From Candidatus Sungiibacteriota bacterium (lineage in GTDB: Bacteria > Patescibacteriota > Minisyncoccia > Sungbacterales > JACQCQ01), in the NCBI GenBank assembly GCA_016201505.1, contig JACQCQ010000012.1, forward strand, positions 10,187-74,186: a stretch of 64,000 nucleotides of DNA. The letters run 5' to 3'. Of the stretch, positions 1,537 to 57,377 are shown in pieces. How positions within the stretch are numbered: the first letter of the stretch is position 1; each line of letters opens with the position of its first letter. The position numbers and the translations under genes were made by a program. The notes beneath the pieces were generated by a model. That model was not told the origin of the DNA and did not search any database. It was given only the letters and a program-made list of their open reading frames with translations.

Positions 1537-1671
1537 GCCAAATTCTAAATTCTAAATTCTAATATCGAAATCATAAACAAATTCAAAACTCTAAATTCCA
1601 ATGTTCGAAAAGCGTGTTTTGATTTTTGAATTTTTGTCATTTGGATTTTTTTCGGATTTAGGATTTCGTGC

Positions 1672-3910: not shown

Positions 3911-3924
3911 CTTATTCTAGTATA

Positions 3925-3958
3925 CCAAAACACCCTGCCGTATGGCGGGGTGTTTTGG
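3925..3958. terminator. symmetric hairpin flanked by A-run/T-run (bidirectional terminator or attenuator)
   Basis: ccaaaacaccctgcc gtat ggcggggtgttttgg. On the minus strand it reads hairpin plus UUUUGG, followed 17 nt later by the ATG of the 3629..3910 gene. Confidence 0.6.
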
Positions 3959-5202: not shown

Positions 5203-5219
5203 GAAAGAGCCCCCTCTGG

Positions 5220-16122: not shown

Positions 16123-16217
16123 GCGTACATCATCGAATAACTAATCTTTTGCGAATATGCGAATTCGTTTATTCGTTTGAGATTCGAGATTCGCTGATAC
16201 TTATCACTAATAGCGTA

Positions 16218-18125: not shown

Positions 18126-18435
18126 ACCCGGTCAGTGAAACCCAGCAGTAGAGCATATGCTCACCACTGGGCAAGCTTCAAATTATGATTAAATAAGTAT
18201 TTACACCCCGGCGTGAGAAGCGAAGCCCAGTATGATACGAAGTATTCGTGCTGGGGTTTCCCTGCCGGGCATAAAATCTAAAGGATAAGCTATAGTAACC
18301 CGAAAATGGCCTCATTTCAAGCCCCAGGGCAGAAATAAGAAGCAGGAATGAGGCATTAAGACGGCGGCACGAAACGCGTATTTTCTATTATTTGTTCTTC
18401 CTTGTTTCTTATACTTTATTCTTTATTCTTAATTC

Positions 18436-19047
18436 ATGATTCTTTTAATTGGCCTAGGGAATCCCGGCAAGGCTTACGAAGGAACACGGCATAATGTGGG
18501 CCGCGAAATTGTTTTGGCCTTCGCTAAAAAGCATGAGGTCAACGCCTTCGCCCCGCATAAAAAAATAAAGGGACTTGTGACTGAATGCAAGATTCAAAAA
18601 GAAAATTACGCTTTGGTTCTGCCGGAAACGTTTATGAACAAATCCGGCCAAGCCGCTAAAGAGGCCAAGCTGGTTTTTAAAACGGAACCCGAAAAAATTT
18701 TTGTGGTGCATGATGATGCCGATATTGAGTTGGGGCGCACCAAACTCCTATTCGGCCGCGATTCGGCGGGACATAAAGGTGTTGAATCCGTGATGCGGGC
18801 GCTCGCCACCAAAGACTTTTGGCGCTTTCGCATCGGTATTGGCGGGGAAAGACCAAGACTGGAACTGGACCTTAGGCGAAGATCAGGTAAAAAAATAAAA
18901 CACGTCGCCGCCGAGTCCCTTGTCTTAAAAAAATTCTCGCCGGCCGAAGAAGCGCTGATGAAAAAAGTCCGCGCTAAAACCATCGGGGCGCTTGGCGATC
19001 TTGCCAATACCCCGCCCGAGCATGTAATGAATCACTATAACAAGTGA
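18436..19047 (+). CDS. pth: peptidyl-tRNA hydrolase
   Basis: MILLIGLGNPGKAYEGTRHNVG..., the Pth N-terminal signature. Confidence 0.9.
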   Translation: MILLIGLGNPGKAYEGTRHNVGREIVLAFAKKHEVNAFAPHKKIKGLVTECKIQKENYALVLPETFMNKSGQAAKEAKLVFKTEPEKIFVVHDDADIELGRTKLLFGRDSAGHKGVESVMRALATKDFWRFRIGIGGERPRLELDLRRRSGKKIKHVAAESLVLKKFSPAEEALMKKVRAKTIGALGDLANTPPEHVMNHYNK

Positions 19048-19440: not shown

Positions 19441-21441
19441 ATGAACGAAATTAAGGAGTTACAAACAGTTCTGATCGCGGCAGTCACCCCCACTTTTTTA
19501 GAACGGGGGGGTTTGTGGTTCGCTGAAAACGAAGAAAAGATTCTACGTGCCGCCAAATCTCAAGCCTGGTGGGGCGATCACATTTTGGTCCTCGAAAAAG
19601 ATCGCGAGATGAAACTCTCTAGGCTCGCTCGCCGGCTCACCGATCTGGGATATCAAAAAACACATGCCATCGTCTCGCCGGGCGAATTCTCGCAACTCGG
19701 CGACACGCTCCGCATTGCCGCAATCAACTACGAAACCATTGTCCGCATCGAATTCTTGGGAAACAAGATTGAGCGCATTGAAAGAGAAGCGTTCCGCGTC
19801 GAACCGCAACCCTTAAAACCAAAAGACAAACGACATCAATTTCGCGAGGGCGACTACGTGGTTCATTTAGACCACGGCATCGGCATCTACAAAGGTGAAA
19901 TCCGAAATCCTAAATCCGAAGCACGAAATAAATCTGAAGCACAAAATTCAGAAAATCTAGAATTTGGGGATTTGAATTTAGAGCTTTACCACGTAGTGGA
20001 ATACGCGCCGCCGCGAAAAGGAGGCGCTCCCGATCGACTGCTGGTTCCACTTGATCAGGAGAAAAAATTATCACTGTATATCGGATTTGATCGCCCGACT
20101 ATTCACCGACTTGGCGGGACAGTGTGGTTTACCACAAAAAGAAAACTGCGCGAATCAGCCGAGAATTTCGCGCGTGAATTGCTCAAAATTTATGCCGCGC
20201 GCGAAGGGGTAACGCGTCCGCCGTTTTACGGCGACCCGACAATCGAACAAGCCTTTGCTGACGCCTTCCCCTTTGTCGAGACTCTCTCGCAGTCGCGCGC
20301 CATTGATGAAATTTTGCGTGATCTCGAAAAACCGACCCCCATGGACCGCGTCCTCGTCGGCGATGTCGGATTTGGCAAGACTGAAGTCGCGATGCGGGCG
20401 GCACTCCGTGTTGTGCTCTCCGGCAAACAGGTGGCACTTCTTGCCCCCACCACCATTCTCGCCGATCAGCACGAGCGCACGTTTAAAGAGCGATTCAAGG
20501 ATCTTCCTATCACTATCAACTCGCTCTCACGACTAACACCCAAAAACGAGGCAAAGCATATCGTTGAAAAAGTAAATCAGGGAGCCGTTGATATTTTTAT
20601 CGGTACGCATCGCATCTTATCAAAAGATATCGTCTTACTGAAACTCGGGATGCTGATCATCGATGAGGAACAGAAATTTGGTGTCTTACATAAAGAACAC
20701 TTTAAAAAGTTGCGCTCGGAAATTGATATTCTATCGATTTCGGCAACCCCGATTCCCCGGACGCTTTCGCTCACCATGGCGAATCTGCGATCCATCTCTG
20801 AAGTGAACGACCCGCCGCCCGAGCGTGTGGCCGTTAAAAATTTCGTCCTGCCCTACCGCGACTCGATTGTAAAAGAAGCCATCGAAGCAGAATTAAAACG
20901 AAAGGGCCAAGTCTATCTACTCCACAATCGAGTCGAGACGATTGGCTCGGCTGCGCGATTGCTGCAAGCATTAATTCCCCAGGTTTCGATCGGCGTGATC
21001 CACGGCCGTATGGATGAGCCTGCGCTGATTAAAACGCTGGCCGAATTCAGAAATAAGAAAATTGATATTTTGGTGGCCACAACCATCATCGAAAACGGAC
21101 TCGATTTTTCAAACGTAAATACATTGGTGGTGGAAAACGCCACGCGGCTCGGGCTTGCCCAAAGCTATCAAATCCGCGGCCGCATTGGGAGAAGCGACCG
21201 TGCGGCCTACGCCTACTTTTTGTACCCTGCCCAACATCTAACGCCGGAGGCGCGTGAGCGACTCGAAACACTTGAATCATTTGAAGCGCTCGGCTCGGGC
21301 TACCAAATCGCGCTCCGCGATCTCGAGATGCGCGGCGCCGGCGCAATCCTTGGTAAAGATCAATCCGGCGCCATTCAAAAAGGCGGACTTAATTTATACT
21401 GTCAGCTCTTGGCTGAAGCATTGGAGGTACTGAAATCATAA
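19441..21441 (+). CDS. mfd: Mfd-like transcription-repair coupling factor, short form (RNAP-interacting plus SF2 translocase modules only)
   Basis: DEAD/RecG-like helicase motifs (VGDVGFGKTEVAMRAA; LIIDEEQKFGV; SATPIPRTL), then the TRCF C-terminal domain. At 666 aa it lacks the UvrB-homology N-terminal domains, and it carries a low-complexity insert (KSEARNKSEAQNSENLEFGD). Confidence 0.75.
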   Translation: MNEIKELQTVLIAAVTPTFLERGGLWFAENEEKILRAAKSQAWWGDHILVLEKDREMKLSRLARRLTDLGYQKTHAIVSPGEFSQLGDTLRIAAINYETIVRIEFLGNKIERIEREAFRVEPQPLKPKDKRHQFREGDYVVHLDHGIGIYKGEIRNPKSEARNKSEAQNSENLEFGDLNLELYHVVEYAPPRKGGAPDRLLVPLDQEKKLSLYIGFDRPTIHRLGGTVWFTTKRKLRESAENFARELLKIYAAREGVTRPPFYGDPTIEQAFADAFPFVETLSQSRAIDEILRDLEKPTPMDRVLVGDVGFGKTEVAMRAALRVVLSGKQVALLAPTTILADQHERTFKERFKDLPITINSLSRLTPKNEAKHIVEKVNQGAVDIFIGTHRILSKDIVLLKLGMLIIDEEQKFGVLHKEHFKKLRSEIDILSISATPIPRTLSLTMANLRSISEVNDPPPERVAVKNFVLPYRDSIVKEAIEAELKRKGQVYLLHNRVETIGSAARLLQALIPQVSIGVIHGRMDEPALIKTLAEFRNKKIDILVATTIIENGLDFSNVNTLVVENATRLGLAQSYQIRGRIGRSDRAAYAYFLYPAQHLTPEARERLETLESFEALGSGYQIALRDLEMRGAGAILGKDQSGAIQKGGLNLYCQLLAEALEVLKS

Positions 21442-35484: not shown

Positions 35485-38211
35485 TTATATCACAAAGTTA
35501 ATCAATCTGCCCGGGATGAAGACCACTTTTTTGGGCGGGGCAATAAAGAATTTGGCGAGCGCATTGTTTTTCGCGAGACTGGCGCTGATTCCGGCCTCGG
35601 AAATATTTCTGGGGAACTCAAGTATCGCGCGGGTTTTGCCGTTTATCTGAATGATAAATTCTGCCGTGTCGCTTGCTTTTTCAACCCTTGCCTCCGGCCA
35701 GCGGCTGTGATGAATCGTTCCCTTTTGTTTCCAGATACTCCAAAGCTCCTCGGTTATAAACGGTGCGAGCGGGCTAAGCAACTTGAGAAACTGCATTCGG
35801 TCTTCTTTGGAGACATTTTCTGGGGATTTCTCAAATCCGCTCATTGCAATCATGAGCGCCGAAATTGCCGTATTGTATTGCAGATTTTGAATGTCGCGAC
35901 TGACTTTTTGAATCGTCTGACTGACCAGTTTTTGGATCTTCTCGTCCGAAACACGCGCCAGTTTTATTTTTGGATCCTGGTAGAAATTCCAAACACGCAT
36001 CAGAAATCGAGTAATGCCGCGAATGCCCGAATCGCGAAAATCGCCGCCTTCGGTAAGGGGTGCCAAAAAAGCCAGATACAGGCGAATCGCGTCTACACCA
36101 TAGGCTTTCATATAACTATCCGGACTTACAATGTTACCCTTTGATTTTGACATCTTGGCGCCGTTTTTCGTGATCAGGCCGTGGGCGCGGAAGGTCGCAA
36201 AAGGTTCCTCAAAGTGGACCAGGCCCCAATCATGCAAAGCCATCGTCATAAATCGCGAATAGAGAAGATGAAGCACCGAGTGCTCGGCGCCGCCGATATA
36301 CATATCAACTGGCAGCCAGCGCCGTGTAATCTCCTGATCCCACGGAATTTCTAATTTCGAAATTTTGGCATGGACCGATGGATATCTCAAGAAATACCAA
36401 GCGGAATCAAAAAATGTATCCGAGACATCGGTTTCGCGCCGCGCCCGGCCTTGGCACTTGGGGCATTTAACTTGATGGAAAGATTTAACCGAGGCCAGCG
36501 GCGAAGCGCCCGTCCCCGTCGGCCGAAATTCCCTTATAAAAGGCAGCTTGACCGGCAGATCTTTATCCGGCACCGGTTGCCACCCACAGTCATTACAAAA
36601 AATCATGGGAATCGGCGGCCCCCAATAGCGCTGGCGCGAAATCAGCCAGTCGCGCAGCCGATACTGAACTTTTTTCTCTCCACCCACGGCCTTCGTGATC
36701 GCCCATTTGGCCTCTTCTGATTTCAGGCCGTTGAATTTCCCAGAGTTTATCAAAACGCCTTCCCCAATATAAGCTGCGTAAACATCACTAAAATCTAATT
36801 GTTCTTTTTTTATCTCAATTTTAATCCCAAACTCGTAGGCTTTTCTAAATTCGTCTTTGTTACCCCAATCAAATCGTTCGTTTTTCCCGTCAGCTGCATG
36901 TAACAAGATTTTCTTAACAGGACCTTCACTATGGATATACCACGGTCCGCTAGTAAAATTTTTTTCTGCAATATCAAAAACTTTTCCTACCTCTTCTGTA
37001 TAGATAAGATTAAGACCATTCCACGTTCCAGTACCTGGCGTAACTTTTGCAAATTTCTGAATCTGTTCGTAGAAATTCTTGTTGAGAGACCGACTAATTA
37101 CAACTATAAAACTCGAGTTTGGCTCTATGACCTGCAAAATTGGCAATTTAAATTTCTTGGCGAATTCAAAGTCGCGTTCATCGTGCGCCGGCACGGCCAT
37201 GATGGCGCCCGTTCCATACGTCGCAAGAACATAATCCGAAATCCAGATCGGAATTGCCTCTTGGTTTGCGGGGTTGACGGCACTCACCCCTTTTACCTCA
37301 ATGCCGGTTTTTTCTTTTCCTGCGGCTGTTCTTTCAATCTCCGATTTTTGTGCTGCAGCTTGAATGTACTTCTCTACTGCCTCCCTATTTGCCATTTGCA
37401 ATGTGCTATTTGCAAGCAACGGATGTTCCGGCGCCAGAACCATATAGGTCGCGCCAAACAAGGTGTCTGGCCGCGTCGTAAACACTTTTATGCTTGATTC
37501 ATGATTCTTGATTCTAAATTCCAGCTCGGCTCCTTCTGATTTTCCGATCCAATTACGCTGTGCAGTTTTGATAGGGTCTGACCAATCGAGTTTCTCAATA
37601 TTGGCAAGCAACCGCTCGGCATAGTCCGTGATTTTGAAAAACCACTGCTCGAGATCTTTTTTGACGACCGGCGTTCCGCAGCGCTCGCACTTGCCGGCAA
37701 TCACCTGTTCATCGGCGAGCACGGTCAGGCACGACGGGCACCAATTGACTTTGGCTTTTTTTCGATAGGCGAGGTTGTGCTTAAACATCTGGATAAACAG
37801 CCATTGGGTGTGTTGGTAGTATGCGGGGTCGTAGGTTTCGAGCCGCTCACGCCAGGCAAACGCGTTTCCAATTTCGGAGAGCTGGCGATAGAAATTTTTT
37901 TCGGTAACCTTGGCTAATTTCATCGGATGCTGATTAATTCTTAAGGCGTAGTTTTCCGAGTGAATGCCGAAGCCATCCAGTCCAATCGGCTCGAAGACGT
38001 CGTGGCCCTGCATACGCTTGAAACGGCCGTAAATATCAACACCAGTGAATGTCCTGACACTCCCGATATGCAGGCCCTCCGCCGAGGGATAGGGAAACAT
38101 CATCAGGTTGTAGTAGGGATTTTTGGCCCGCACCAAATCTGGCTCGTAGGTTTTCTCTTTAAACCACTTTTTACGCCATTTTTTCTCGATTTTGGCCGGG
38201 TTATAGCGCAT
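35485..38211 (-). CDS. leuS: leucyl-tRNA synthetase
   Basis: Class I aaRS with a HIGH-like region, a CP1 editing domain, KMSKS and the LeuRS C-terminus. Confidence 0.95.
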   Translation of the reverse strand: MRYNPAKIEKKWRKKWFKEKTYEPDLVRAKNPYYNLMMFPYPSAEGLHIGSVRTFTGVDIYGRFKRMQGHDVFEPIGLDGFGIHSENYALRINQHPMKLAKVTEKNFYRQLSEIGNAFAWRERLETYDPAYYQHTQWLFIQMFKHNLAYRKKAKVNWCPSCLTVLADEQVIAGKCERCGTPVVKKDLEQWFFKITDYAERLLANIEKLDWSDPIKTAQRNWIGKSEGAELEFRIKNHESSIKVFTTRPDTLFGATYMVLAPEHPLLANSTLQMANREAVEKYIQAAAQKSEIERTAAGKEKTGIEVKGVSAVNPANQEAIPIWISDYVLATYGTGAIMAVPAHDERDFEFAKKFKLPILQVIEPNSSFIVVISRSLNKNFYEQIQKFAKVTPGTGTWNGLNLIYTEEVGKVFDIAEKNFTSGPWYIHSEGPVKKILLHAADGKNERFDWGNKDEFRKAYEFGIKIEIKKEQLDFSDVYAAYIGEGVLINSGKFNGLKSEEAKWAITKAVGGEKKVQYRLRDWLISRQRYWGPPIPMIFCNDCGWQPVPDKDLPVKLPFIREFRPTGTGASPLASVKSFHQVKCPKCQGRARRETDVSDTFFDSAWYFLRYPSVHAKISKLEIPWDQEITRRWLPVDMYIGGAEHSVLHLLYSRFMTMALHDWGLVHFEEPFATFRAHGLITKNGAKMSKSKGNIVSPDSYMKAYGVDAIRLYLAFLAPLTEGGDFRDSGIRGITRFLMRVWNFYQDPKIKLARVSDEKIQKLVSQTIQKVSRDIQNLQYNTAISALMIAMSGFEKSPENVSKEDRMQFLKLLSPLAPFITEELWSIWKQKGTIHHSRWPEARVEKASDTAEFIIQINGKTRAILEFPRNISEAGISASLAKNNALAKFFIAPPKKVVFIPGRLINFVI

Positions 38212-38266
38212 GTATACTTAAGTACTATACAGACGGTTTTGACCCGCTACAAGCTTATAAATAAAT

Positions 38267-39141: not shown

Positions 39142-39969
39142 CTAAATTTGAAAGAGTCTTCGGCAGTTTTGAGTTGTTGCTTCGGCCACTGCCTCAAGCG
39201 AAACTCCTTGCCACTCGGCCAGTTTTTTGGCTGTGGCTTCGATATAGAAAGGTTCATTCCGTTTGCCGCGATACGGGACGGGTGCGACATACGGCGCGTC
39301 GGTTTCTAAAAGTATCTTTTGAAGCGGAACCTGCGAGACGATGTCATAATAGCTTTTGGCAAATGTAATTACGCCGCCAAAGCCGATATAAAAGCCCAAA
39401 TCCATGAGAGCGCTGGCCTCGGCGGCCGTGCCGCTGAAAAAATGGACCACGCCCATAGGTCTAGAATTAGGAATTAAGAAGTAGGAATTAAGGATTTCGA
39501 TGAGGTCGCCGAACGCTTCCCGACAATGGATGATCAATGGTTTCCCGACTGCTTTTGCAACTTCTATTTGAGACTTAAAAATTCTTTTTTGTTCTGCCTT
39601 AATTCGTAATTCATCACTCTGGATTCTATAATAATCGAGGCCGCACTCGCCTATACTGACGACCTTCGCATGCGAGCCTAATTCGAGAAACGTAGCCGCA
39701 TCAAATACTTCGGCGCTCGCCTGCTCTTTCTCCCATTCGTCGTGATAACTTTTAACCGCGTGCGTCGGATGAAATCCGACTGAAGCATACACACCTTCAG
39801 CATATTTTTCGGCAAGTAAAATTGCCTCCCTCGAAGTTGATGCTTGTGTTCCGATATTTATCATCCAAATGCCGGCCTCGAGAGATCGCTGAATAACAGC
39901 CTCACGATCATCTTTGAACACCGGAAACTGGACGTGCGTATGCGAATCAATCAGTTTGGGGTTCGACAT
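39142..39969 (-). CDS. tatD: TatD family metal-dependent DNase/hydrolase
   Basis: IDSHTHVQF start, with TatD His/Asp/Glu metal ligands throughout. Confidence 0.85.
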   Translation of the reverse strand: MSNPKLIDSHTHVQFPVFKDDREAVIQRSLEAGIWMINIGTQASTSREAILLAEKYAEGVYASVGFHPTHAVKSYHDEWEKEQASAEVFDAATFLELGSHAKVVSIGECGLDYYRIQSDELRIKAEQKRIFKSQIEVAKAVGKPLIIHCREAFGDLIEILNSYFLIPNSRPMGVVHFFSGTAAEASALMDLGFYIGFGGVITFAKSYYDIVSQVPLQKILLETDAPYVAPVPYRGKRNEPFYIEATAKKLAEWQGVSLEAVAEATTQNCRRLFQI

Positions 39970-47910: not shown

Positions 47911-50900
47911 TCAGCGAATACCAATCCAGAGACGCTCGCTTCCGCCAACTGGAATTTCACGCTCGATTTTAAAATTCTTTTTGCCGCCAAGAATGACTTT
48001 TTTGGCGCCGACGTCTCGTTTAATCTGCCCCTGCCATTCTTTTAAGATGCGCTTCGATTTTTCTCCGGCCAGAAACTGAAGGTTAATGGCATCTTGCGGC
48101 AAAAGGCCGAGATCGCGTCGCAATTCCTGGATGTTGCGGACAATTTCCCGAGCCAGCCCCTCGCGCCGCAGCCCCTCTGTCAATGTCGTATCGAGAATAA
48201 TTTTCGGTCCTTTGGCTACCTGCGGTAAAATAATAATCTTTTTGACATTGACCTCGTCTTCCAAGAGACGCTGCATTTCCTTTTTGCGGGAAAACTCCTT
48301 ATGCCGTATGGCAAGAGCAGCCAGCGGCTGGCGAACTTTAATGCCCGCCGCCGCGCGGGCTTTTAGGGCCTCGGCGGCAATCAGCCGAAGTGTTTCCATT
48401 TTTTTCTCGAGCACCGGTCGCATACGCGCGCGCGAGGCAATGGGCCAGTCTCTTAAATGAACGCTTTCTTCCTTGAAGACAAACTTTTTTGAAAGTTCGC
48501 GGTAGATGGCGTCCGCGATATAGGGGGTAAAGGGAGCCACCAATGCCAAGAGAGTCAGAAGAACTTCGCGCGTGGTGCCGGCAACTTCAGCTTTTTCTTT
48601 TTTTGAGCTGGGGCGCTGAAATCTCCTGCGCGATCGGCGCAAATACCAATTGGAAAAATCTTCGACCGTAAACGTCTCGACAAGACGGGCTGCCGAGACC
48701 ACGTCATAGGCTTCCAGATGGCGCGTTACGTCTTGAATCAGATTTTGCAGGCGCGATAGAATCCAGCGATCAAGCAGGGAACCAGATTTCCTCGCGAGAG
48801 AAACTTTGCCCTGCGTATAGGTGTCGAATAACACCCACGAGTTCCAGAGTGTCCCCAAGAATCCGCGCAGTTTCGCCGCCAGATCCTTCTCGTCAAATTT
48901 TTTGGGATCTCCCGGGGCGTTGACCGTATAAAAATACCAGCGAATGGCGTCAACCCCGTAGGTATCAATCATGGCCCAGGGATTTACGATGTTGCCGCGG
49001 GATTTGGACATTTTATGTCCATGCTTATCCAAGACATGGCCCAGCGAAATGACATTTTTATAGGGCGCGCCTTTGGCCAGTAAGGTCGATTCGGCCAGCA
49101 AGGTATAAAACCAGCCTCGTGTCTGATCAACCGCTTCGCAAATATAATCCGCCGGAAAATTTTTGCGCTTTTCAATCAGATCGACGTTTTCAAATGGATA
49201 ATGGATCGCAGCGAACGGCATGGCGCCTGAATCAAACCAGACATCGGCCACTTCCGGGATGCGAGCTTTAACCCCGCCGCAGGAACATCGCATTTTAATT
49301 TCATCAACGTACGGTCGATGCAGATCGATTTCGCCTTCAACGTTTCGCGGCAGGGGTTTTGGTTCAAAAATTTCAAATTCACCCGGCGCAATATACTCGC
49401 CCTGCTTCGGCCAAAGAGCAGCAGACTCTTTCCAAGACTCGCCTTTGATGGTGGCTACTAACATCCAGATCGGGTCGGCGTGCGTAATGATTAAAATAGT
49501 TTTCCCGCGGTATTTTGCCTCAAGCTCCCGAAAGAAAGACAGCATGCGCCGGCGCACGTCTTGTAAGGATTCGCCGTTTGGCGGCTTAGTCTCATATTTT
49601 TCGAGCCGATTTTTAAAAAAGGCGCGGTAGTTTCCGGCGGGGCCCCCATTAAAGTCCCCCGTATCGATTTCGCGCAATCGTTCATCAAAGATAATCTCTT
49701 TGTCGCCTAACATATTTTTTAGAACCTCCAGTGTTTCTTTGGTGCGCACTAAATCGGAGGCCATCACGACGTCAATCCTCTCGGCTACGAGCCGCGGGCC
49801 GGCGCGTTCTACATCGGCGCGCCCTTTTTCGGTGAGATGCGCGGGACTCGTCTCCGGCCACGAAGAAATATAATCTTTGGTTAAATTCTCGGCCTCGCCG
49901 TGCCGCATCAAAATGTAGCGATTGCCTGACGACATCGCGCGCGAGGACAATTCCTCGACCGAAGAAACAGCCGCGACGGCTCCGCAGGCATTGCACTTCC
50001 ACAACGGCAACGTGGTGCCCCAATAACGCTCGCGCGAGAAGGCCCAATCTTTTTCTTCTTTTAGCCATTCCCCGAATCGGCCATGTTTTAAATGCGACGG
50101 AACCCAATGAATGGTCTCGTTATTGCGCATTACGTCTTTGCGCACCGCATTCACCCGGAGCCACCAGGAAGTCCGTGCATAATAGAGTATCGGCGTGTCG
50201 CAGCGCCAGCAAAATGGGTAGTCATGCTCGTAGGCTTCTTCGCGGAATAAGGACCCGATCTTCTGCAGATGCTGTAAAATAAAAAGATCAGTTTCTTTGG
50301 CTTTGACATACTTCCCGCCCAGCCCATTCCCCAGTGCGGCCACAAATTTGCCGTTATCGGAGACGGTGTGAATTGCGGGAAGCCCAACTTTTTTCCCAAG
50401 CCGGTAATCGTCTTCTCCATACATGACTGCCGTATGGACCACACCCGTGCCTTCAGTCCCCAAGACAAAATCGGCAGCGTAAATTTTATATGAATTGTTG
50501 GTCACCAATTCCGGCACATCGAAAAGCGGCTGGTACGTAAGCCCAACGAGTTCTTTCCCAAGAAAGGGCACACTCGCTTTTGAATCTTTCGGCAAGACGC
50601 CGCGTTTTACGAGAATAGAGAAATTATCCTGGCCCACCACAACCCAATTACCTTTTTTTTCAGGATCGGGCACTCGGACATACTGCATGCCTTCCGATAC
50701 CGCGAGCGCCACATTCCCCGGCAATGTCCAGGGCGTTGTGGTCCAGGACAAAATGGCCACGTTCTTCCATTTGGGATCTTGGCTCGTCAATTTAAATCGA
50801 ATGTAAACTGAAGTATCAACAATTGACTTATACCCCAGCGCAATTTCGTGCGATGAAAGACCGGTGCCGCATCTCGTACACCAGGGCAAGACCTTAAAAT

Positions 50901-51516
50901 CCTGATAAAGCAATTTTTTCTTCCAAAATTCAGCAATCATCCACCACAGAGATTCCATATAGGATTTTTCGTAGGTGATGTAAGGACGGGCCATATCCAG
51001 CCAAAAAGCGATGCGTTCAGTAAGATTCTCCCAGTCCTTCACGTACTGCCAAACAGCCTTTCGGCATTGTTCGTTAAAGGCCGCGATGCCGTATTGTTCG
51101 ATGTCTTGTTTTGATTTAAACCCCAACGCTTTTTCTACTTGAATTTCAACCGGCAGCCCATGCGTATCCCAGCCGCCGCGGCGCGGCACATAGTATCCCT
51201 GCATCGATTTAAATCGCGGAATAACGTCTTTAAATGAGCGCGCTTCTATATGATGAAAGCCGGGCGCGGCGTTCGCGGTCGGCGGGCCTTCATAAAAAAT
51301 GAAAGGTTTGCCGCTGGCACGCGCTTTAACCGATTTTTCGAATATTGAATGATCTTTCCAGAATTGAAGAACTTGCTCCTCACGCAAAACTGGCTCTGAT
51401 TTGGGAGTTATTTGGGGCTGGGGTTTTATCATTGGCACGCCCAACTCGACGAGATCTTCGCCCCGTTTTAGCTGGGAGACTGATTTTTTAGCGGTTTTGC
51501 CTTTCTCGGTTGGCAT
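47911..51516 (-). CDS. ileS: isoleucyl-tRNA synthetase with an inserted histidine-phosphatase (PGAM-like) domain (about aa 528-712; nt about 49381-49935)
   Basis: HIGH-like region, CP1 editing domain, WAFSRERYWGTTLP, KMSKSRGN and a C-terminal zinc/junction domain. Between ...SVEELSSRA and ...DLHRPYVDEIK lie about 185 aa carrying RHGEAENL, SDLVRTKET and ILIITHADP, the His-phosphatase branch-1 motifs. Confidence 0.9.
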   Translation of the reverse strand: MPTEKGKTAKKSVSQLKRGEDLVELGVPMIKPQPQITPKSEPVLREEQVLQFWKDHSIFEKSVKARASGKPFIFYEGPPTANAAPGFHHIEARSFKDVIPRFKSMQGYYVPRRGGWDTHGLPVEIQVEKALGFKSKQDIEQYGIAAFNEQCRKAVWQYVKDWENLTERIAFWLDMARPYITYEKSYMESLWWMIAEFWKKKLLYQDFKVLPWCTRCGTGLSSHEIALGYKSIVDTSVYIRFKLTSQDPKWKNVAILSWTTTPWTLPGNVALAVSEGMQYVRVPDPEKKGNWVVVGQDNFSILVKRGVLPKDSKASVPFLGKELVGLTYQPLFDVPELVTNNSYKIYAADFVLGTEGTGVVHTAVMYGEDDYRLGKKVGLPAIHTVSDNGKFVAALGNGLGGKYVKAKETDLFILQHLQKIGSLFREEAYEHDYPFCWRCDTPILYYARTSWWLRVNAVRKDVMRNNETIHWVPSHLKHGRFGEWLKEEKDWAFSRERYWGTTLPLWKCNACGAVAAVSSVEELSSRAMSSGNRYILMRHGEAENLTKDYISSWPETSPAHLTEKGRADVERAGPRLVAERIDVVMASDLVRTKETLEVLKNMLGDKEIIFDERLREIDTGDFNGGPAGNYRAFFKNRLEKYETKPPNGESLQDVRRRMLSFFRELEAKYRGKTILIITHADPIWMLVATIKGESWKESAALWPKQGEYIAPGEFEIFEPKPLPRNVEGEIDLHRPYVDEIKMRCSCGGVKARIPEVADVWFDSGAMPFAAIHYPFENVDLIEKRKNFPADYICEAVDQTRGWFYTLLAESTLLAKGAPYKNVISLGHVLDKHGHKMSKSRGNIVNPWAMIDTYGVDAIRWYFYTVNAPGDPKKFDEKDLAAKLRGFLGTLWNSWVLFDTYTQGKVSLARKSGSLLDRWILSRLQNLIQDVTRHLEAYDVVSAARLVETFTVEDFSNWYLRRSRRRFQRPSSKKEKAEVAGTTREVLLTLLALVAPFTPYIADAIYRELSKKFVFKEESVHLRDWPIASRARMRPVLEKKMETLRLIAAEALKARAAAGIKVRQPLAALAIRHKEFSRKKEMQRLLEDEVNVKKIIILPQVAKGPKIILDTTLTEGLRREGLAREIVRNIQELRRDLGLLPQDAINLQFLAGEKSKRILKEWQGQIKRDVGAKKVILGGKKNFKIEREIPVGGSERLWIGIR

Positions 51517-51590
51517 CTAAAGCTGATTACAGGCTATTGTCTACAGGCTACAGCTGATGCGGTAGTCTGTGGTCGGTAGTCTGTGAGCTT
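51517..51590 (-). promoter_or_regulatory. ileS 5' leader with repeated GGTAGTCTGT / CTGTAG motif family
   Basis: Minus-strand leader reads CACAGACUACCGACCACAGACUACCGCAUCAGCUGUAGCCUGUAGAC...UUUAG AUG, with no SD. A similar motif block lies in the infC-rpmI spacer. Confidence 0.4.
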
Positions 51591-51731
51591 TTTAATAGGT
51601 GTCTCATTCTAGCTGAAAAAATGCCCCCTGCCAAGAGCTTCTTTCACTATCCACTTGTGGAATAAGGCGGGCTCGACTAAGGTGAGAACGGCAAAAATGA
51701 AGGCGCGAAAGTTTTTTGAGGCGAGCGTCCG

Positions 51732-53348
51732 CTACATTTCTTCGGGAGCGGAAATCCCCAAAAGATCCAATGATTTTTTTAAAACAATTTGAGTGGCCCT
51801 CGCTAATTGAAGCCGCGATTTTTTAATATCGGCTGCTGCATCCAAGATGCGTTCTGTCTCATAGAACACATGAAAGTTATGCGCGAGCTCGTAAGCATAG
51901 CGGATGAGTCTCGAAACGCGATAATCCGCGGCAATGTCACGCAGCACATCCGGAAAATCAATTAATTTCCAAATTAAACGATCCTCCGATTCTGAAGCCA
52001 GGAGCGAGACATCGAAATCAGATTTTTCATACGGCTCTTTTATGAAAATCGAACAAAGGCGTGCGTGCGCATACTGAATATAGAAGACCGGATTTTCTTT
52101 GGATCTTTTTTTAGCCAGATCCAAATCAAAATCAATATGCGTCTCGTGATTTTTTTCTAAAAAGAAATACCGCGCCTGATCGAGACCGACTTCATCAATC
52201 AATTCATCAATGGTGACGTATACTCCTGTGCGTTTGGACATCCGCCGCTCAACGCCATTTTCCATCAAACGAACAAGCTGCATTACGATCACTTCAGATT
52301 TCGCCATCCCGATAATTTTCGCTACTGCCTGAATCCTGGAAACGTAACCATGATGATCGGCACCCAAAATATTGATTTTGTGATTAAAACCTCGTTTCTT
52401 GGTTTCTAAATAGTGAGCAGCATCAATAAAAAAGTACGTCGGGAGTCGGTCAGAGGTGACTAGAACTCGATCTTTATCATCTCCATATTTTTTCGTTTTT
52501 AACCATCTGGCACCATCCCTGTCAAAAATAAGATCAGGGGAAATAGATTTCGCAAGCTGTTCAAATTCGATAGTTAAAGGCGGCCGGCTTTGGCGAATAT
52601 CTCGTTGTTCGGATGTCCACCTATCAAAATTGATTTTCATTTTTTTCTCAATTACCGGTCGAATGAGATTTTTAACAAAATCATTTGCAACATATATCCC
52701 GAGAAGCTGAGGATCTTTTAAATAAAGATCCCAGTTCAATGTTTGTTTAGAGTCAAGCCATTCTTTCAAATAATCCCCATGATAATATTTCTCGTCATCT
52801 AGCACCTTGCCCGCTATAGCTAAAATTGAAAGTCCAAGTGTTGTGATCTGGTTCCCGGAATCATTGATATAATATTCACGTTCAACCTCAAAACCCTGCG
52901 AGGCCAGAACGCGAGAAAGCACGTCGCCCAAGAATCCGCCGCGGCCGTTGGCAAGTGTTAAAGGACCGGTTGGATTGGCTGAAATAAACTCGACTTGGAT
53001 TTTTTCGTTGAGGCGACTCTGATTCCCGTAGCGCTCTTTTCCATCTAAGATTCGTGTAAATTCTTTTTTTACTTCAGACTCGGAAATTTGGAAATTCAGG
53101 AATCCCGGAGGAGAAAACGTAATCGTGGCAATGGCCGGATCGATAATTTTTCGCATTAACATCTCGGCCACATCTTGAGGTTGCTTTTTTTCAAGGCCCG
53201 CCAAAACGAGAGGTAAATTGGTGGCATAGTCACCGAGTTCGGCCCTTGGCGGGTGTTCAACCGAAAATGAAACCCCCCCTGGAATCTCCACATTTTTTCG
53301 CAAGATTTCTATAATTCTTTCTCTCATGCCTATGATGTATCTTATCAT
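51732..53348 (-). CDS. argS: arginyl-tRNA synthetase
   Basis: Class I aaRS with N-terminal Add-1, a HIGH region (ANPTGPLTLANGRG), MSKR and a DALR anticodon-binding domain. Confidence 0.9.
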   Translation of the reverse strand: MIRYIIGMRERIIEILRKNVEIPGGVSFSVEHPPRAELGDYATNLPLVLAGLEKKQPQDVAEMLMRKIIDPAIATITFSPPGFLNFQISESEVKKEFTRILDGKERYGNQSRLNEKIQVEFISANPTGPLTLANGRGGFLGDVLSRVLASQGFEVEREYYINDSGNQITTLGLSILAIAGKVLDDEKYYHGDYLKEWLDSKQTLNWDLYLKDPQLLGIYVANDFVKNLIRPVIEKKMKINFDRWTSEQRDIRQSRPPLTIEFEQLAKSISPDLIFDRDGARWLKTKKYGDDKDRVLVTSDRLPTYFFIDAAHYLETKKRGFNHKINILGADHHGYVSRIQAVAKIIGMAKSEVIVMQLVRLMENGVERRMSKRTGVYVTIDELIDEVGLDQARYFFLEKNHETHIDFDLDLAKKRSKENPVFYIQYAHARLCSIFIKEPYEKSDFDVSLLASESEDRLIWKLIDFPDVLRDIAADYRVSRLIRYAYELAHNFHVFYETERILDAAADIKKSRLQLARATQIVLKKSLDLLGISAPEEM

Positions 53349-53608
53349 CTGTCAAAAAACTGGGCGGCGGCGCCCCGTAACGGTGGACGTTTTTCCTGTG
53401 AGTATTGCTAGAACCATCGCCGTATCCAGCGCCATACAGCCGATTATGATGGCTGCCGATTTGCTCTCCGGCGTCTCGAGGGAAATACCTTCGAACAAAG
53501 GCTGACGAAGGCCATAAACCAGATCCACATCGCCCGCCTCCTGTCTCGAAAAAACTGCAGGCTGTGGTACTTTGAACGTAGCACGTGAGTCTTGAAAAGC
53601 AATAACTG

Positions 53609-54052
53609 ATGCCGACCTACGTCGAAAACAAACGAGCGCACTTCGACTATTACATCCTCGAAACCTACGAGGCGGGAATAGAGTTAATTGGTTTTGAGGT
53701 AAAAGCCATTCGTGGCGGGCATATGAATCTAATGGGCGCCTTTGTCGTGCCGCGCGCGAATGAACTCTATTTAACAAACGCCACCGTCAGCCGCTACCAG
53801 CCGCAAAATACGCCGCGCGACTATAACCCTGAAAGGTCCAGGCGACTCTTGCTCCATAGGAACGAGATCGCGACCTTAATCGGCAAATCACGTGAATCAG
53901 GCTTGACCTTGATCCCTATCCGCGTATATAGTAAGCGTCGACATATAAAACTTCTCCTCGGCGTCGCACGGCGCAAGAAAAAACTAGACAAGCGCGAAGC
54001 GATTAAAAAACGCTATAGTGAACGGGAGATCCAGAAGGCCACTAGCCACTAG
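53609..54052 (+). CDS. smpB: SsrA-binding protein
   Basis: AHFDYYILETYEAGIELIGFEVKAIR..., the SmpB fold with a basic C-terminal tail. Confidence 0.9.
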   Translation: MPTYVENKRAHFDYYILETYEAGIELIGFEVKAIRGGHMNLMGAFVVPRANELYLTNATVSRYQPQNTPRDYNPERSRRLLLHRNEIATLIGKSRESGLTLIPIRVYSKRRHIKLLLGVARRKKKLDKREAIKKRYSEREIQKATSH

Positions 54053-54110
54053 AAGTCAGCCATTAGTTTTTTAACTAGTTGCTAGTGGCTAGTTGCTAAG
54101 CAACTAGTTC

Positions 54111-54528
54111 GGGGACGCATTTGATTCGACGGATCATTTACATTTAGGCGAAACGCAGACCGAGAAGTTCGGCCAACTCGCTTGCCCTTCCATAGCCCTT
54201 GGCGAAGGAGGGTAAAAGTTCCGAACAATAATACGTGCAAACGTATTCAAATTTGATGGTGCTTTGGCACCCGCTATGGCGTAAGTTATAGCTGCTTCCT
54301 TGCGAAAGAATCGCAAGCATCGGACCATGATGCCTCTTGGTGGGTTCCCGGTGTTATATCGAGGCTGGACTCTCGCCAACCGGTAACGGGAGCGACGAAT
54401 ACCGGAAACGATCGCTGAGTATGTTGCAGGATGTGAAGCTCGCGATTCGTACATAATCCTGCTATGTCTGTAATCATCGTTTTGTTTAGATGAAGATTCG
54501 GACGAGGAGTCACTCTCCTCCGTCTCCA
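54111..54528 (+). ncRNA. ssrA: tmRNA (transfer-messenger RNA)
   Basis: 5' GGGGACGCAUUUGAUUCGACGG matches the tmRNA 5' consensus. Acceptor GGGGACG/CGUCUCC has a G3:U70 wobble. T-arm GAGGA GUCACUC UCCUC, then discriminator A; CCA is not encoded. An internal reading frame GCA AAC GUA UUC AAA UUU GAU GGU GCU UUG GCA CCC GCU AUG GCG UAA gives tag ANVFKFDGALAPAMA. It lies immediately downstream of smpB. Confidence 0.8.
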
Positions 54529-54633
54529 TTAGAACGAATGCAAAAATTAAAGGGCAAAATGCAAAATTTAGGTATCGCCTCGCGATGATTTTTAAATTGT
54601 CATTTTAATTTTTGATATTTAAACTCTAATTTT

Positions 54634-55143
54634 ATTCAGAAACGCTACCGCACAAACGAATATATCAGATCTCCCGAACTGCGGGTGATTACCGGCGACG
54701 GCAAGAGTCTTGGCGTTTTGACATTGGCGGAAGCTCTCGCAAAAGCACGGGCCATGGGACTCGATCTGATTGAAATCGCGCCAACGGCGAACCCGCCCGT
54801 CGCCAAAATCATGGATTTTGGCAAGTTTAAATATGAGCGTGAGCGCGGCGAACGGGAGCATCGGCCGAAAAAAACCGGTGGCGAAGTAAAAAGCATCCGC
54901 ATCGGATTTAAAACCGGCAAGCATGACCTGGAGGTGAGAGCACTGCAAGCCAAAAAATTTTTAGAGCGCGGCGATATGGTCAACGTGCTGCTGGCGCTTC
55001 GTGGCCGCGAAAAAGCGCACCGGCCTCTCGCCCAAACCAAATTCCAGGAGTTCTTGAAATTAATCCCGATTGATATTACACTCGACGGGTCTCCCAGGAG
55101 CATCCCGCAAGGCATTCTGGGGATGATTCGCAGGGCCTCGTAA
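54634..55143 (+). CDS. infC: translation initiation factor IF-3 (probable AUU start)
   Basis: Track ORF starts at GTG 54685. In-frame upstream codons encode ...RTNEYIRSPELR, which aligns to the IF3 N-domain. ATT at 54634 is the first in-frame candidate after a TGA stop. Confidence 0.8.
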   Translation: MQKRYRTNEYIRSPELRVITGDGKSLGVLTLAEALAKARAMGLDLIEIAPTANPPVAKIMDFGKFKYERERGEREHRPKKTGGEVKSIRIGFKTGKHDLEVRALQAKKFLERGDMVNVLLALRGREKAHRPLAQTKFQEFLKLIPIDITLDGSPRSIPQGILGMIRRAS

Positions 55144-55215
55144 AAGACTACAGTCCACAGTCTACTGACTACCACACGCTGTAGACCGTAGTCGGTAGTC
55201 TGTAGTCATCAAGAA
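55144..55215 (+). promoter_or_regulatory. infC-rpmI spacer with inverted-repeat motif block (gactacag ... ctgtagtc; GGTAGTCTGT family)
   Basis: gactacagtccacagtctactgactacc acacgc tgtagaccgtagtcggtagtctgtagtc, a long-range inverted repeat related to the ileS leader motif. Confidence 0.4.
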
Positions 55216-55407
55216 ATGAAAACCAGAAAATCCATCGCGAAGCGCATCAAAGTGACTTCGACCGGCAAATACTTGCGGCGCACTTCGCGCATCAATCATT
55301 TTAATGCCAAAAAGCGCAGTCGCACCCAACAGCGCGGCAAAGTCTCTCGTCCCATCGGCGTTGTCCATGAGCGCTATATCCGCCAAGCCATCGCGGCTCG
55401 GGCATAA
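55216..55407 (+). CDS. rpmI: 50S ribosomal protein L35
   Basis: 63 aa, highly basic: MKTRKSIAKRIKVTSTGKYLRR... Confidence 0.85.
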   Translation: MKTRKSIAKRIKVTSTGKYLRRTSRINHFNAKKRSRTQQRGKVSRPIGVVHERYIRQAIAARA

Positions 55408-55408
55408 C

Positions 55409-55446
55409 TATTTCCTATTTCCCATTTCCCATTTCCTATTTCCTAA
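55409..55446 (+). repeat. pyrimidine-rich microsatellite (ATTTCCY)n immediately upstream of rplT
   Basis: tatttcctatttcccatttcccatttcctatttcct; there is no purine-rich SD before the rplT ATG at 55450. Confidence 0.6.
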
Positions 55447-55449
55447 ACT

Positions 55450-55800
55450 ATGGTTCGAGTAAAACGCGGCACAATCGCCCATAAGAAACGCGAGAAGCTT
55501 CTTCGGTACGCCAAAGGCTACCGCTGGGGCCGGAAAAATAAAGAGCGGCAAGCGCGCGAGGCTTTGCTGCATGCTTGGACCTATTCATTCCAGCATCGAA
55601 AAAAGAAAAAGGGTGAATTCAGAGCCCTCTGGAACGCCAAAATTTCGGCGGCACTCGACGGCTCCGAGGTATCATACAGCCAATTTATCGGCGCGCTCGG
55701 CAAGAAAAAAATAGGTCTCAATCGCAAGATGCTGGCCACCATCGCCGAACATCATCCCGAGACATTTAAGCAAATCCTGGCTGAAGTCGCCAGAACCTAA
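55450..55800 (+). CDS. rplT: 50S ribosomal protein L20
   Basis: MVRVKRGTIAHKKREKLLRYAKGYRWGRKN..., a clear L20 match. Confidence 0.9.
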   Translation: MVRVKRGTIAHKKREKLLRYAKGYRWGRKNKERQAREALLHAWTYSFQHRKKKKGEFRALWNAKISAALDGSEVSYSQFIGALGKKKIGLNRKMLATIAEHHPETFKQILAEVART

Positions 55801-55802
55801 AA

Positions 55803-55830
55803 AGCCTCTCACGAGGCTTTTTAGGTTCAG
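55803..55830 (+). terminator. rho-independent terminator after rplT
   Basis: aaaagcctc tcac gaggcttttt. Confidence 0.7.
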
Positions 55831-55844
55831 TGCTATAATTAGAT
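55828..55844 (+). promoter_or_regulatory. extended -10 promoter (TGcTATAAT) 5 nt upstream of the guaA ATG (candidate leaderless transcript)
   Basis: gtgcTATAATtagatATG. Confidence 0.35.
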
Positions 55845-57377
55845 ATGATCACAGTACTCAACTTTGGCAGTCAGTTTGCACATCTTATCGCGCGAAGAAT
55901 CAGAAATTTCGGGGTCGCCTCCGAGATTTTGCCTTTCGATGCCCCCGTTGAGACAATTCTTGGCCTCAACCCGAGCGGAATTATATTATCCGGCAGTCCT
56001 GCATCGGTTTTGGAAAGCGGCGGTCCCCTCCCCGCTAAAAGAATCTTTGAACTTGGCATCCCGATTCTCGGCATTTGCTACGGCGAGCAATTGATAGCTC
56101 ATATGTTAAAAGGAAAAGTAGTAAAAGGCGCCCATCGAGAATTTGGCAAAGAAATGTTAATGATCCGAAAGAGAAGTAGCCTTTTTCAAGGTCTCTCGAA
56201 AACCGAAACAGTATGGTTTTCGCATGGCGATCAGGTCGCAAAAATGCCGCCGGGATTTATGAATACAGCAAGCACTAAAGGATGTGCCTACGCGGCATTT
56301 GAAGACCCCGAACGAAAATTATTTGGCATCCAATTCCATCCTGAAGTGACGCACACCAGGCACGGCAATCAAATTTTAGAGAATTTCGTATTCAAAATTT
56401 GCAAGGCAAGAAAAAACTGGAAACTAGAATCAGTAATTAAGGAGATAACTAAGAAAATAAAAGTGGGGGTCGGCACTTCCCACGTCGTTATTGGCATCTC
56501 CGGCGGCGTTGACTCGCTGGTGGCGGCAACACTTCTCTATCGCGCCATCGGAGATCAACTTCATGCGGTATTCGTGGATACAGGACTTCTTCGAAAGAAC
56601 GAAGTTGGTGAGGTCTCAACGACTCTCAAAAATCAGGGATTTAGAAATCTTCATGTCATTGATGCAAGTAAAATATTCCTAAAAAGGTTGTATGGAATCA
56701 AAGACCCAGAACAGAAAAGAAAAATCATTGGGCACACCTTTATCGAGATTTTTGAAAGAACCATTCAAACTAAATTAAAAAAATTCTCCATCAAATACTT
56801 AGCACAGGGAACAATCTACCCGGACCGGATTGAGTCAGCTCAAACTTCAAAATCAGCGGCAAAAATTAAAAGTCATCACAATCTGACGTTGCCGGAAAAA
56901 TTACACGTAAAAATCTTGGAGCCCCTAAAAGACTTATACAAAGATGAGGTGCGGGGAGTTGGACGTGAGATGCGCCTACCGCATGTCCTGTTATGGCGTC
57001 ACCCTTTTCCCGGACCGGGGCTTGGTATCCGCATTGTCGGCGAGATTACAAAAGCACGGCTCGAGATTTTACGCGAAGCCGACGCTATTTTTCTTAAAAT
57101 TTTGCAAGAAACCGGCGAATATCAAAAAATCTGGCAGGCGTTTGCCGTGCTGCTGCCGATAAAAACCGTCGGTGTGATGGGAGACGCCCGAACCTATGAG
57201 TATATGATCGCGCTCCGCGCCGTTGATTCGGTCGATGGCATGAGTGCCGATTGGCATAAAATCCCAAATGAAATTCTGGAGAAAATTTCATCGGCAATTG
57301 TCGGCAAAGTCCGCGGCGTCAACCGCGTGGTCTACGACATCACCCAAAAACCGCCGGCCACGATTGAGTATGAGTAA
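55845..57377 (+). CDS. guaA: GMP synthase (glutamine-hydrolysing)
   Basis: N-terminal GATase domain and C-terminal ATP-PPase with the SGGVDS motif. Confidence 0.95.
   Translation: MITVLNFGSQFAHLIARRIRNFGVASEILPFDAPVETILGLNPSGIILSGSPASVLESGGPLPAKRIFELGIPILGICYGEQLIAHMLKGKVVKGAHREFGKEMLMIRKRSSLFQGLSKTETVWFSHGDQVAKMPPGFMNTASTKGCAYAAFEDPERKLFGIQFHPEVTHTRHGNQILENFVFKICKARKNWKLESVIKEITKKIKVGVGTSHVVIGISGGVDSLVAATLLYRAIGDQLHAVFVDTGLLRKNEVGEVSTTLKNQGFRNLHVIDASKIFLKRLYGIKDPEQKRKIIGHTFIEIFERTIQTKLKKFSIKYLAQGTIYPDRIESAQTSKSAAKIKSHHNLTLPEKLHVKILEPLKDLYKDEVRGVGREMRLPHVLLWRHPFPGPGLGIRIVGEITKARLEILREADAIFLKILQETGEYQKIWQAFAVLLPIKTVGVMGDARTYEYMIALRAVDSVDGMSADWHKIPNEILEKISSAIVGKVRGVNRVVYDITQKPPATIEYE

Follow-up and report, generated by a model that had tools for sequence, protein, structure and literature searches.

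The look-alike leaders of ileS and rpmI in a "Candidatus Sungbacteria" genome are two copies of a palindromic heptanucleotide-repeat element

Two hairpin-forming elements upstream of ileS and rpmI

The stretch of DNA analysed here, referred to as the window, comprises 64 kb of a metagenome-assembled genome (MAG) of "Candidatus Sungbacteria", a member of the candidate phyla radiation (CPR) with a small genome, and carries two short regions of similar sequence, one in the leader of ileS and one in the spacer between infC and rpmI. The surrounding genes, called with NCBIfam for proteins and with Rfam for transfer-messenger RNA (tmRNA), are compiled in Table 1 together with the parts of both elements. 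A sequence-only reading of the window had taken the two regions for a common cis-regulatory RNA, for example an operator for a ribosomal protein, an aminoacyl-tRNA synthetase (aaRS) or another translational autoregulator. The leader sequences quoted in that reading are present in the window as described, and their likeness is genuine; what the reading overlooked is the 7-nt tandem build of both elements. In each of them about four G(A/T)CTACN units lead to a short loop, about four NGTAG(A/T)C units follow, and the whole forms an imperfect hairpin; the look-alike leaders are two copies of one palindromic heptanucleotide-repeat element.

Table 1. Genes, elements and heptamer arrays of the window, with three loci on other contigs at the end. 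L-numbers denote contigs or loci of related species or metagenomes, L011-L130 being metagenome loci.
Feature	Position	Strand	Remarks
ileS leader element	51523-51585	minus	ileS ATG at 51516-51514
5' arm, ileS element	51560..51585	minus	CACAGAC TACCGAC CACAGAC TACCG; 14-nt double unit twice (direct repeat)
Loop, ileS hairpin	51554..51559	minus	CATCAG
3' arm, ileS element	51523..51553	minus	CTGTAGC CTGTAGA CAATAGC CTGTAAT CAG; final heptamer 8 nt before ATG
Promoter-like site TTGGCA-N17-TAGAAT	51606..51634	minus	upstream of ileS element
infC-rpmI element	55146-55207	plus	between infC stop and rpmI ATG (55216)
5' arm, infC-rpmI element	55146..55172	plus	four heptamers, GACTACA GTCCACA GTCTACT GACTAC; begins 3 nt past infC stop
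Loop, infC-rpmI hairpin	55173..55180	plus	CACACGCT; full palindromic register, registers shifted by 7 nt also possible
3' arm, infC-rpmI element	55181..55207	plus	GTAGACC GTAGTCG GTAGTCT GTAGTC; end 8 nt before rpmI ATG
ileS	47911-51516	minus	downstream of argS, upstream of recO; NCBIfam
argS	51732-53348	minus	NCBIfam
smpB	53609-54052	plus	NCBIfam
tmRNA (ssrA)	54111-54531	plus	Rfam, 62 bits; directly after smpB
infC	stop TAA 55141-55143	plus	
rpmI	55216-55407	plus	
rplT	55450-55800	plus	followed by guaA
rpsL-rpsG spacer	1537..1671		inverted heptamer arrays, AAATTCT x3 and more / AGGATTT-type; S12 and S7 identified
hisS-HIT spacer	16163..16193		CGAAT/ATTCG-type heptamers: GAGATTC x2, ATTCGTTT x2
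TTATTCT array	18409..18445	plus	5.3 copies; runs into pth start codon (18436)
smpB-ssrA spacer	54036..54105	plus	inverted arrays GCCACTA / CTAGTGG / CTAGTTG; smpB stop codon inside array
ssrA-infC spacer	54540..54634	plus	AT-rich period-7/13 arrays (GCAAAAT ... ATTTTNA)
rpmI-rplT spacer	55408..55445	plus	direct CTATTTC array, 5.4 copies; end 4 nt before rplT ATG
PF05635 ORF with CCTAGTT/AACTAGG arrays	L001 4690-5125		rpmI-rplT spacer
PF05635 ORF with GTAGTC/GACTAC arrays	L105 about 5180-5690		
PF05635 ORF with GTAGTC/GACTAC arrays	L116 about 650-1130		

The rpmI and ileS elements are about 72% identical over about 64 nt, with a local alignment score of 39 compared to 12.6±2.3 (maximum 23) for shuffled sequences, and no other tile of the 64 kb matches the rpmI element as well as the ileS leader does, the runner-up scoring 22. 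Moreover, the motif CTGTAGWC occurs five times in the window against 0.81 expected occurrences, and four of the five lie within these two elements, both of which contain stop codons in all three frames of both strands. A third CTGTAGTC site, at 32137, was dismissed as an isolated chance match. The ends of the rpmI spacer, correctly recognised by the sequence-only reading as reverse complements of each other, form arms of 27 nt that are 78% complementary (divided into complete heptamers, the fourth unit of the 5' arm reads GACTACC and the loop acacgct). Folding of the sense RNA yielded -24.0 kcal/mol for the infC-rpmI element (z = -3.2 versus shuffles) and -20.2 kcal/mol for the ileS element (z = -3.3 versus shuffles). 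In the mRNA sense the ileS element is followed by CAGCTTTAG-ATG, and its stem can be extended via the flanking AAAGCT/AGCTTT to 3 nt from the start codon. Tandem Repeats Finder (TRF) detected period 7 in the 3' arms of both elements, at 51528-51553 and at 55188-55207, respectively.

The promoter region of ileS is conserved across the relatives that were compared. Since its -10 region and the following GAGACACC are retained whether the hairpin is present or not, the hairpin probably resides in the 5' untranslated region of ileS. In the related contig L152 the promoter of the window, GCTAGAATGAGACACC, is directly followed by AACTC-ATG, which indicates that in the window a short ileS leader has been enlarged by the hairpin, an insert of about 75 nt. 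On the antisense strand (51517-51598, plus) the ileS element folds with -42.4 compared to -20.2 kcal/mol in the sense orientation (6 G·U pairs) and precedes TTTTT, so that it resembles an intrinsic terminator facing into ileS; we treat this resemblance as chance, because the orthologous element of L007 has the reverse asymmetry. A function of the hairpins themselves as intrinsic terminators was rejected, as neither is followed by a U-run in the sense orientation and neither appeared in a terminator scan.

The sequence-only reading had also pointed to the lack of a Shine-Dalgarno (SD) sequence at ileS and rpmI. This is true, yet SD-like motifs precede only about 8 of the 62 open reading frames (ORFs) in the window, and many genes look leaderless, so that the absence of an SD at these two genes is no special feature. 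In many genes without an SD a TATAAT-like box stops 5-12 nt short of the ATG, for example at 55828-55847 (guaA), 3911-3930 and 38212-38235 (leuS), and this pattern in the sequence suggests widespread leaderless or very-short-leader mRNAs in the window.

Heptanucleotide arrays in other spacers of the window

The two elements belong to a larger set of period-7 arrays. TRF found 14 such arrays in the window, compared to at most 6 for any other period, and 8-9 of the 14 are intergenic, while non-coding DNA makes up about 11-15% of the window. Similarly, the autocorrelation of non-coding DNA from the window and its close relatives peaks at lags 7, 14 and 21, whereas coding DNA displays period 3 only. 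Lag-7 matches of at least 16 in 21 positions were present in 5 of 41 spacers versus 3 of 445 coding tiles, and other lags reached this value in at most one spacer.

Every one of these spacers is occupied by a particular unit family, and the families come from a limited set of at least six that recur (GACTAC, CTAGTGG, CGAAT, AAATTCT/AGGATTT, AAAATGC and CTATNCC), and the GACTAC type occurs in only two copies in the 64 kb. Other genes of the translation apparatus, at which the same motif might have been anticipated under the sequence-only reading, carry different heptamer units, namely rpsG, rplT, ssrA, infC and pth. The arrays approach the start codons closely, with distances to the ATG of 8 nt at rpmI and ileS, 4 nt at rplT and 3 nt at rpsG, where the last units read AGAAUUU.

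Short arrays of period 7 (and 14/18) were also observed inside genes, at 19897-19947, 37387-37521 and 39464-39490, where they are in frame and encode variable loops of Mfd/TRCF (EIRNPKSEARNKSEAQNSE), LeuS (RIKNHESSIK; LANSTLQMANRE) and TatD (NSYFLIPNS). The process that generates the repeats hence appears to act within genes too.

The same loci in related species

IF3 of the window is identical to a protein recorded for a "Candidatus Sungbacteria" MAG, and its IleS relatives are MAGs of CPR/Parcubacteria. The syntenic region was gathered from 11 related species. These species are about equally distant from the window, with amino acid identities of 65-72% for IleS, 68-88% for IF3 and 69-81% for L20. 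An independent Logan assembly of the window's own strain (L131) is identical in the infC-rplT region.

In the infC-rpmI spacer a GACTAC-type hairpin was found in the window and in a single other species (L007/L135-138), whose elements are identical in five assemblies. The same spacer harbours CGAAT-type heptamers in L001, L134 and L150, which is the family also present in the hisS-HIT spacer of the window, CTAG/CCAG-type heptamers in L009 and AACCAG-type heptamers in L132. Inserts not composed of heptamers occupy it in L149 and L152 (at 1400-1530 and 4440-4575, respectively, with a GC-rich palindrome, GCCTGCCGGCAGGCAGGC), and no element is present in L133, L006 and the species of L139 and L144. 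In the ileS leader, the GACTAC-type hairpin is shared by the window, the L007 species and L134, L009 has CTAG-type heptamers, and L001, L132, L133 and L152 lack an element. The spacers of element-free relatives are only 5-13 nt long. L134 combines the GACTAC type at ileS with a TACGAA type at infC-rpmI. The conservation on which a regulatory role would depend is therefore partial: it holds for both loci of the L007 species and for ileS of L134, but most of the 11 species lack the element or have another one in its stead. That the heptamers are swapped in L009, L134, L150, L001 and L132, although IF3 and L20 remain 68-88% identical, is not the behaviour of a protein-specific operator.

Other unit families persist at their own positions as well. 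CTAG-type arrays occupy the smpB-ssrA spacer in five species (the window and four others), and AAAATGC-type arrays the ssrA-infC spacer in six, where the AT-rich family of the window recurs in L007, L132, L135, L139 and L144; CTAT(T/C)CC precedes rplT in two species, with CTATCCC x4 in L132 at the corresponding place. Comparison of 15 assemblies from three related species (five each, 99.6-99.99% identity) revealed no 7-nt indels in the arrays, indicating that these are not hypermutable; a phase-variable simple sequence repeat (SSR) is not supported, given the same lack of repeat-number differences.

A further observation concerns ORFs of family PF05635, the "23S rRNA intervening-sequence protein", which on three unrelated contigs reside in the loop between inverted heptamer arrays (Table 1). 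This layout of stem plus ORF is that of rRNA intervening sequences (IVS). In the L007 orthologue of the L001 spacer the arrays are present and the ORF is absent. These loci may point to a cassette-like origin of the hairpins or to their processing by an enzyme of the RNase III type; a literature search brought up no paper that connects PF05635 with heptamer repeats.

Tests for a conserved RNA structure

Searches of Rfam 15 yielded no match at either element, neither at the gathering thresholds nor at E <= 10, with L20_leader and T-box included, which agrees with the earlier exclusion of a T-box. The five available GACTAC copies align well as an A-rich flank, four units, a loop, GCTGTAG and four units, and in all five a gap of 8-11 nt separates the hairpin's 3' end from the ATG. 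When a covariance model was made from these sequences, its only matches in 305 kb, the sum of the 64-kb window and about 240 kb of relatives, were the five copies themselves, so that the GACTAC family is really confined to the ileS and infC-rpmI loci in this sequence space.

In the palindromic register 70.9% of the cells of this alignment pair, compared to 19-45% with slid partners. However, the pairing was not above that of column shuffles, of which 478 out of 500 were at least as high, and the alignment consequently offers no covariation in favour of the RNA element that the sequence-only reading had proposed. The pairing appears to result from both arms being built of the same unit rather than from compensatory change. 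At one position per heptamer (columns 29/96 and 36/89) pairing does not occur in any copy, and RNAalifold chose a register shifted by 7 nt. Fold energies of sense and antisense strands exhibited no consistent bias, even between orthologous elements. G·U asymmetry was discarded as a marker of the functional strand, since some elements fold better in the sense orientation and others in the antisense orientation. Mimicry of tRNA-Ile appears improbable, as the loops differ between copies and GAU is restricted to the antisense strand of the ileS loop. For L20 the corresponding primary site would be H40-41 of 23S rRNA, and the window contains no 23S rRNA.

GACTAC/GTAGTC arrays in metagenomes

Contigs of JGI metagenomes were scanned for GTAGTCNGTAGTCNGTAG, which was present on at least 120 contigs with GC contents of 34-70%, none of those listed being closely related to the window. 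All counts in this section refer to the matches listed. Of 123 clusters, 45 are inverted and 13 lie inside long ORFs, and the commonest unit is CTACTGA (= GACTACT). The neighbours are diverse metabolic genes, among them those for hydantoinase, pantoate ligase, SufB, CarA/B, AcrB and MoeA; among the top families there was no enrichment of ribosomal-protein or aaRS genes beside GTAGTC arrays, although an array does precede rplT on a single contig, L109. Among the matches listed, the one most similar to the covariance model lies upstream of sufB, on an unrelated contig, ends with ...CTGTAGTCATTATCAAAAATG and has a near-identical architecture. The distance between array and start codon was not used as evidence here, because ORF calling is biased by the stops that the arrays contain.

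Two strong orientation biases were noted among these matches. Of the 45 inverted clusters, 41 read GTAGTC-loop-GACTAC, which is the opposite of the order in the window elements, and the unit nearest to the downstream start codon is, in the mRNA sense, GACUAC in 32 cases versus GUAGUC in 7.

Further features of the region

The tmRNA gene, supported by the Rfam match, was missed by ARAGORN. For infC, translation very probably starts at ATT 54634 instead of GTG 54685, where the listed ORF begins: no stop interrupts the frame after the one at 54613, the encoded sequence IQKRYRTNEYIRSPELRVI is typical of an IF3 N-terminus, the upstream stretch from 54613 contains no ATG, GTG or TTG, and the relatives have ATC or ATT at the corresponding place. 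The proposed ATT start matches the E. coli infC gene, which is autoregulated through its AUU start. IleRS of the window has 1201 amino acids, with a histidine-phosphatase domain (PF00300 / phosphoglycerate-mutase-like) inserted at residues about 525-708. This insert separates the two halves of the catalytic domain, and the architecture also occurs in L132, L133 and L134.

Discussion

In its position the infC-rpmI element corresponds to the E. coli L20 operator, which is situated upstream of rpmI at the infC end. The likeness to the L20 leader (RF00558) is limited to this position, as the element of the window has no covariance-model match at E <= 10 and shows no conservation in relatives that have 74-81% identical L20 proteins. 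In addition, the element is shared by ileS, a gene that L20 is not known to regulate. Another comparison is offered by the repetitive extragenic palindromes (REP) and bacterial interspersed mosaic elements (BIME) of enterobacteria, imperfect extragenic palindromes that are dispersed over transcribed operon spacers and singly dispensable. Their effects are generic, as in the protection of mRNA 3' ends, and they occur in hundreds of copies with one consensus and a link to RAYT transposases. The elements of the window are likewise imperfect palindromes in intergenic regions, but REPs are not built from tandem heptamers.

Closer parallels exist among heptamer repeats. The classical units of cyanobacterial short tandemly repeated repetitive (STRR) elements are CCCCAGT, TTGGTCA and CAACAGT, none of which ever occurs in tandem within the window. 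STRRs are 7-bp repeats, among them hairpin-forming ones in intercistronic and leader positions, such as between hupS and hupL and upstream of hoxW, and although their function is unknown, it has been suggested that they stabilise transcripts or couple translation (PMC2670836); an STRR inside RNase P RNA is attributed to Vioque (1997) as cited in PMC2858038. The arrays of the window resemble them in having tandem 7-nt units, several families per genome, a mostly intergenic location and, often, hairpins. They differ in that they are short (3-9 units) and degenerate, and that their host belongs to the CPR/Patescibacteria with small genomes and not to the heterocystous cyanobacteria. Likewise, TAACTGA heptamers have been described for marine Beggiatoaceae, some Cyanobacteria and Bacteroidetes, where they precede start codons by a few nucleotides in regions that lack an SD, ribosomal-protein operons among them, with 169 direct sets of this single unit compared to one indirect set (MacGregor, 2015; PMC4679880). 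The window arrays are similarly found near start codons without an SD, contain stops in all frames and precede genes without a functional pattern, whereas they are inverted (palindromic) and of many unit families where TAACTGA is almost always direct and of one unit. TAACTGA itself occurs three times in the window, never in tandem, and the metagenomic unit CTACTGA differs from it at two positions. According to the summary in PMC4679880, heptanucleotides are the commonest class of long SSRs (LSSRs) with units of 5-11 nt in prokaryotes, for which polymerase slippage has been proposed (Mrazek et al., 2007), and units that are not a multiple of three are kept out of coding regions. The predominance of heptamers in the window fits this account, but LSSRs as summarised there are direct runs longer than expected, a description that covers neither paired inverted arrays nor position-specific persistence of unit families. 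With three or more tandem 7-nt units that are dispersed, mostly non-coding and hairpin-forming, the arrays fall among the heptanucleotide tandem arrays (STRR/LSSR) in the broad sense; they are not cyanobacterial STRRs in the strict sense, since host and units differ. The elements are a known but functionally unexplained kind of repeat in a new lineage, and no paper on heptamer repeats in CPR genomes was found in the open-access literature.

With regard to function, the original proposal of a dedicated cis-regulatory RNA of ileS and rpmI(-rplT), bound by a common factor such as a ribosomal protein, IleRS, IF3 or a small RNA, survives in its descriptive part, a shared hairpin-forming motif in two untranslated regions, while the dedicated operator appears highly improbable. 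It would account for the two elements being mutual best matches in the window, for the recurrence of the GACTAC family at both loci of the L007 species and of a different but again shared family in L009, for the restriction of covariance-model matches to these loci, for the narrow range of hairpin-ATG spacings in all five copies and for the position matching that of the E. coli L20 operator. However, an operator that is missing from equally related genomes with minimal spacers, replaced by unrelated heptamers in L134, L150, L001 and L132, and of discordant type at the two loci of L134 is difficult to reconcile with a common regulator, as are the absence of covariation and of any Rfam match, the deviating units at rpsG, rplT, ssrA, infC and pth, the non-conserved loops without a sense-strand mimic of the tRNA-Ile anticodon, and the near-identical architecture before sufB among the metagenome matches listed. 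At the other extreme, the arrays may be functionless by-products, generated by 7-nt slippage together with palindrome-promoting template switching or gene conversion, or representing shrunken versions of a mobile cassette, and retained solely at sites that put up with sequence rich in stops, namely tiny spacers and, as in-frame inserts, protein loops. This explanation, which we regard as less likely but as a serious rival, draws on the patchy distribution among equidistant relatives, the in-frame arrays inside LeuS, Mfd and TatD, the absence of covariation and of a consistent sense/antisense fold bias, the stops in all three frames on both strands of both elements, the slippage attributed to heptanucleotide SSRs in the summary cited above, and the PF05635 ORFs within inverted arrays of L001, L105 and L116, which suggest cassette-like elements. 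It has to contend with the persistence of unit families at a given spacer across species with saturated synonymous divergence, in streamlined CPR genomes (smpB-ssrA with CTAG-type units in 5 species, ssrA-infC with AAAATGC-type units in 6, ileS with GACTAC in 3), with the lack of 7-nt indel polymorphism in 15 assemblies of three species, and with the preference for GACUAC over GUAGUC near start codons (32 versus 7 among the matches listed), which is hard to explain without a strand-specific constraint.

We therefore favour, with a probability of roughly 65%, a generic, sequence-nonspecific mRNA hairpin that serves stability, punctuation or coupling, or is merely tolerated, and that is not a gene-specific operator. 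Compared with the related genomes, the element adds about 60-75 nt, by insertion or expansion, to a spacer of otherwise just 5-13 nt. As the ileS element lies between promoter and ATG and the rpmI element between cistrons, both should be transcribed, and in the mRNA they would fold into a long imperfect hairpin in which 6-bp blocks alternate with single mismatches, one at each 7th position; the hairpin would reach to 8-11 nt from the start codon and contain stops in all three frames. By analogy, the most likely role would be that proposed for cyanobacterial STRRs, to stabilise or punctuate the transcript or to couple neighbouring cistrons; alternatively, the element may have no role and simply be tolerated. 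With the two copies located only 3.6 kb apart, a shared origin or gene conversion would be the most economical explanation of their likeness.

Several observations sit uneasily with such a generic hairpin. The GACTAC family is limited to exactly two loci in the 305 kb, and three genomes have a unit family common to both loci (the window and the L007 species with GACTAC, L009 with CTAG-type units), which hints at a link between the ileS and infC-rpmI loci and is the strongest point in favour of a dedicated regulator, although L134 breaks the pattern and gene conversion over 3.6 kb would also explain the sharing. The elements are recognisable across species whose IleS is only 65-72% identical, and identical in five assemblies of one species; this recognisability in sequence suggests some maintenance. 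The narrow range of hairpin-ATG distances in the five elements is likewise not anticipated. Furthermore, direct-only arrays, such as CTATTTC x5 before rplT, cannot form hairpins, so that one generic role may not cover the whole class, and the lack of a consistent sense/antisense bias, with the antisense strand of the ileS element folding more stably than the sense strand, makes an origin at the DNA level without RNA function fully possible. A more specific idea, which at present is a long shot, is a lineage-wide RNA punctuation, in which IVS-like stems would be cut by a double-strand-specific RNase in an SD-poor, leaderless-rich CPR genome. Cleavage of polycistronic or leadered transcripts would then leave a 5' leader of about 8-11 nt or less at each ATG, and transcripts with a common fate would be labelled by their unit family, for example those of ileS and rpmI by GACTAC. 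The suggestion derives from the occurrence of the same architecture around the PF05635 ORFs in L001, L105 and L116.

If a regulator of translation genes acted on the two leaders, it would constitute a new RNA family, which the present evidence does not support. Instead, the window provides a clear CPR example of heptanucleotide-repeat hairpins, a poorly understood kind of element otherwise described for cyanobacteria (STRR) and Beggiatoaceae. For motif hunting in such lineages this implies that look-alike leaders may be copies of a repeat family and not members of a regulon. Since CPR genomes are tiny, SD-poor and rich in leaderless genes, with spacers of a few nucleotides, they offer a clean setting in which to ask what these arrays do, the candidate roles being mRNA stability, processing, SD-independent initiation or mere tolerance, and the ileS leaders of the window and of L152 constitute a natural pair with and without the element.

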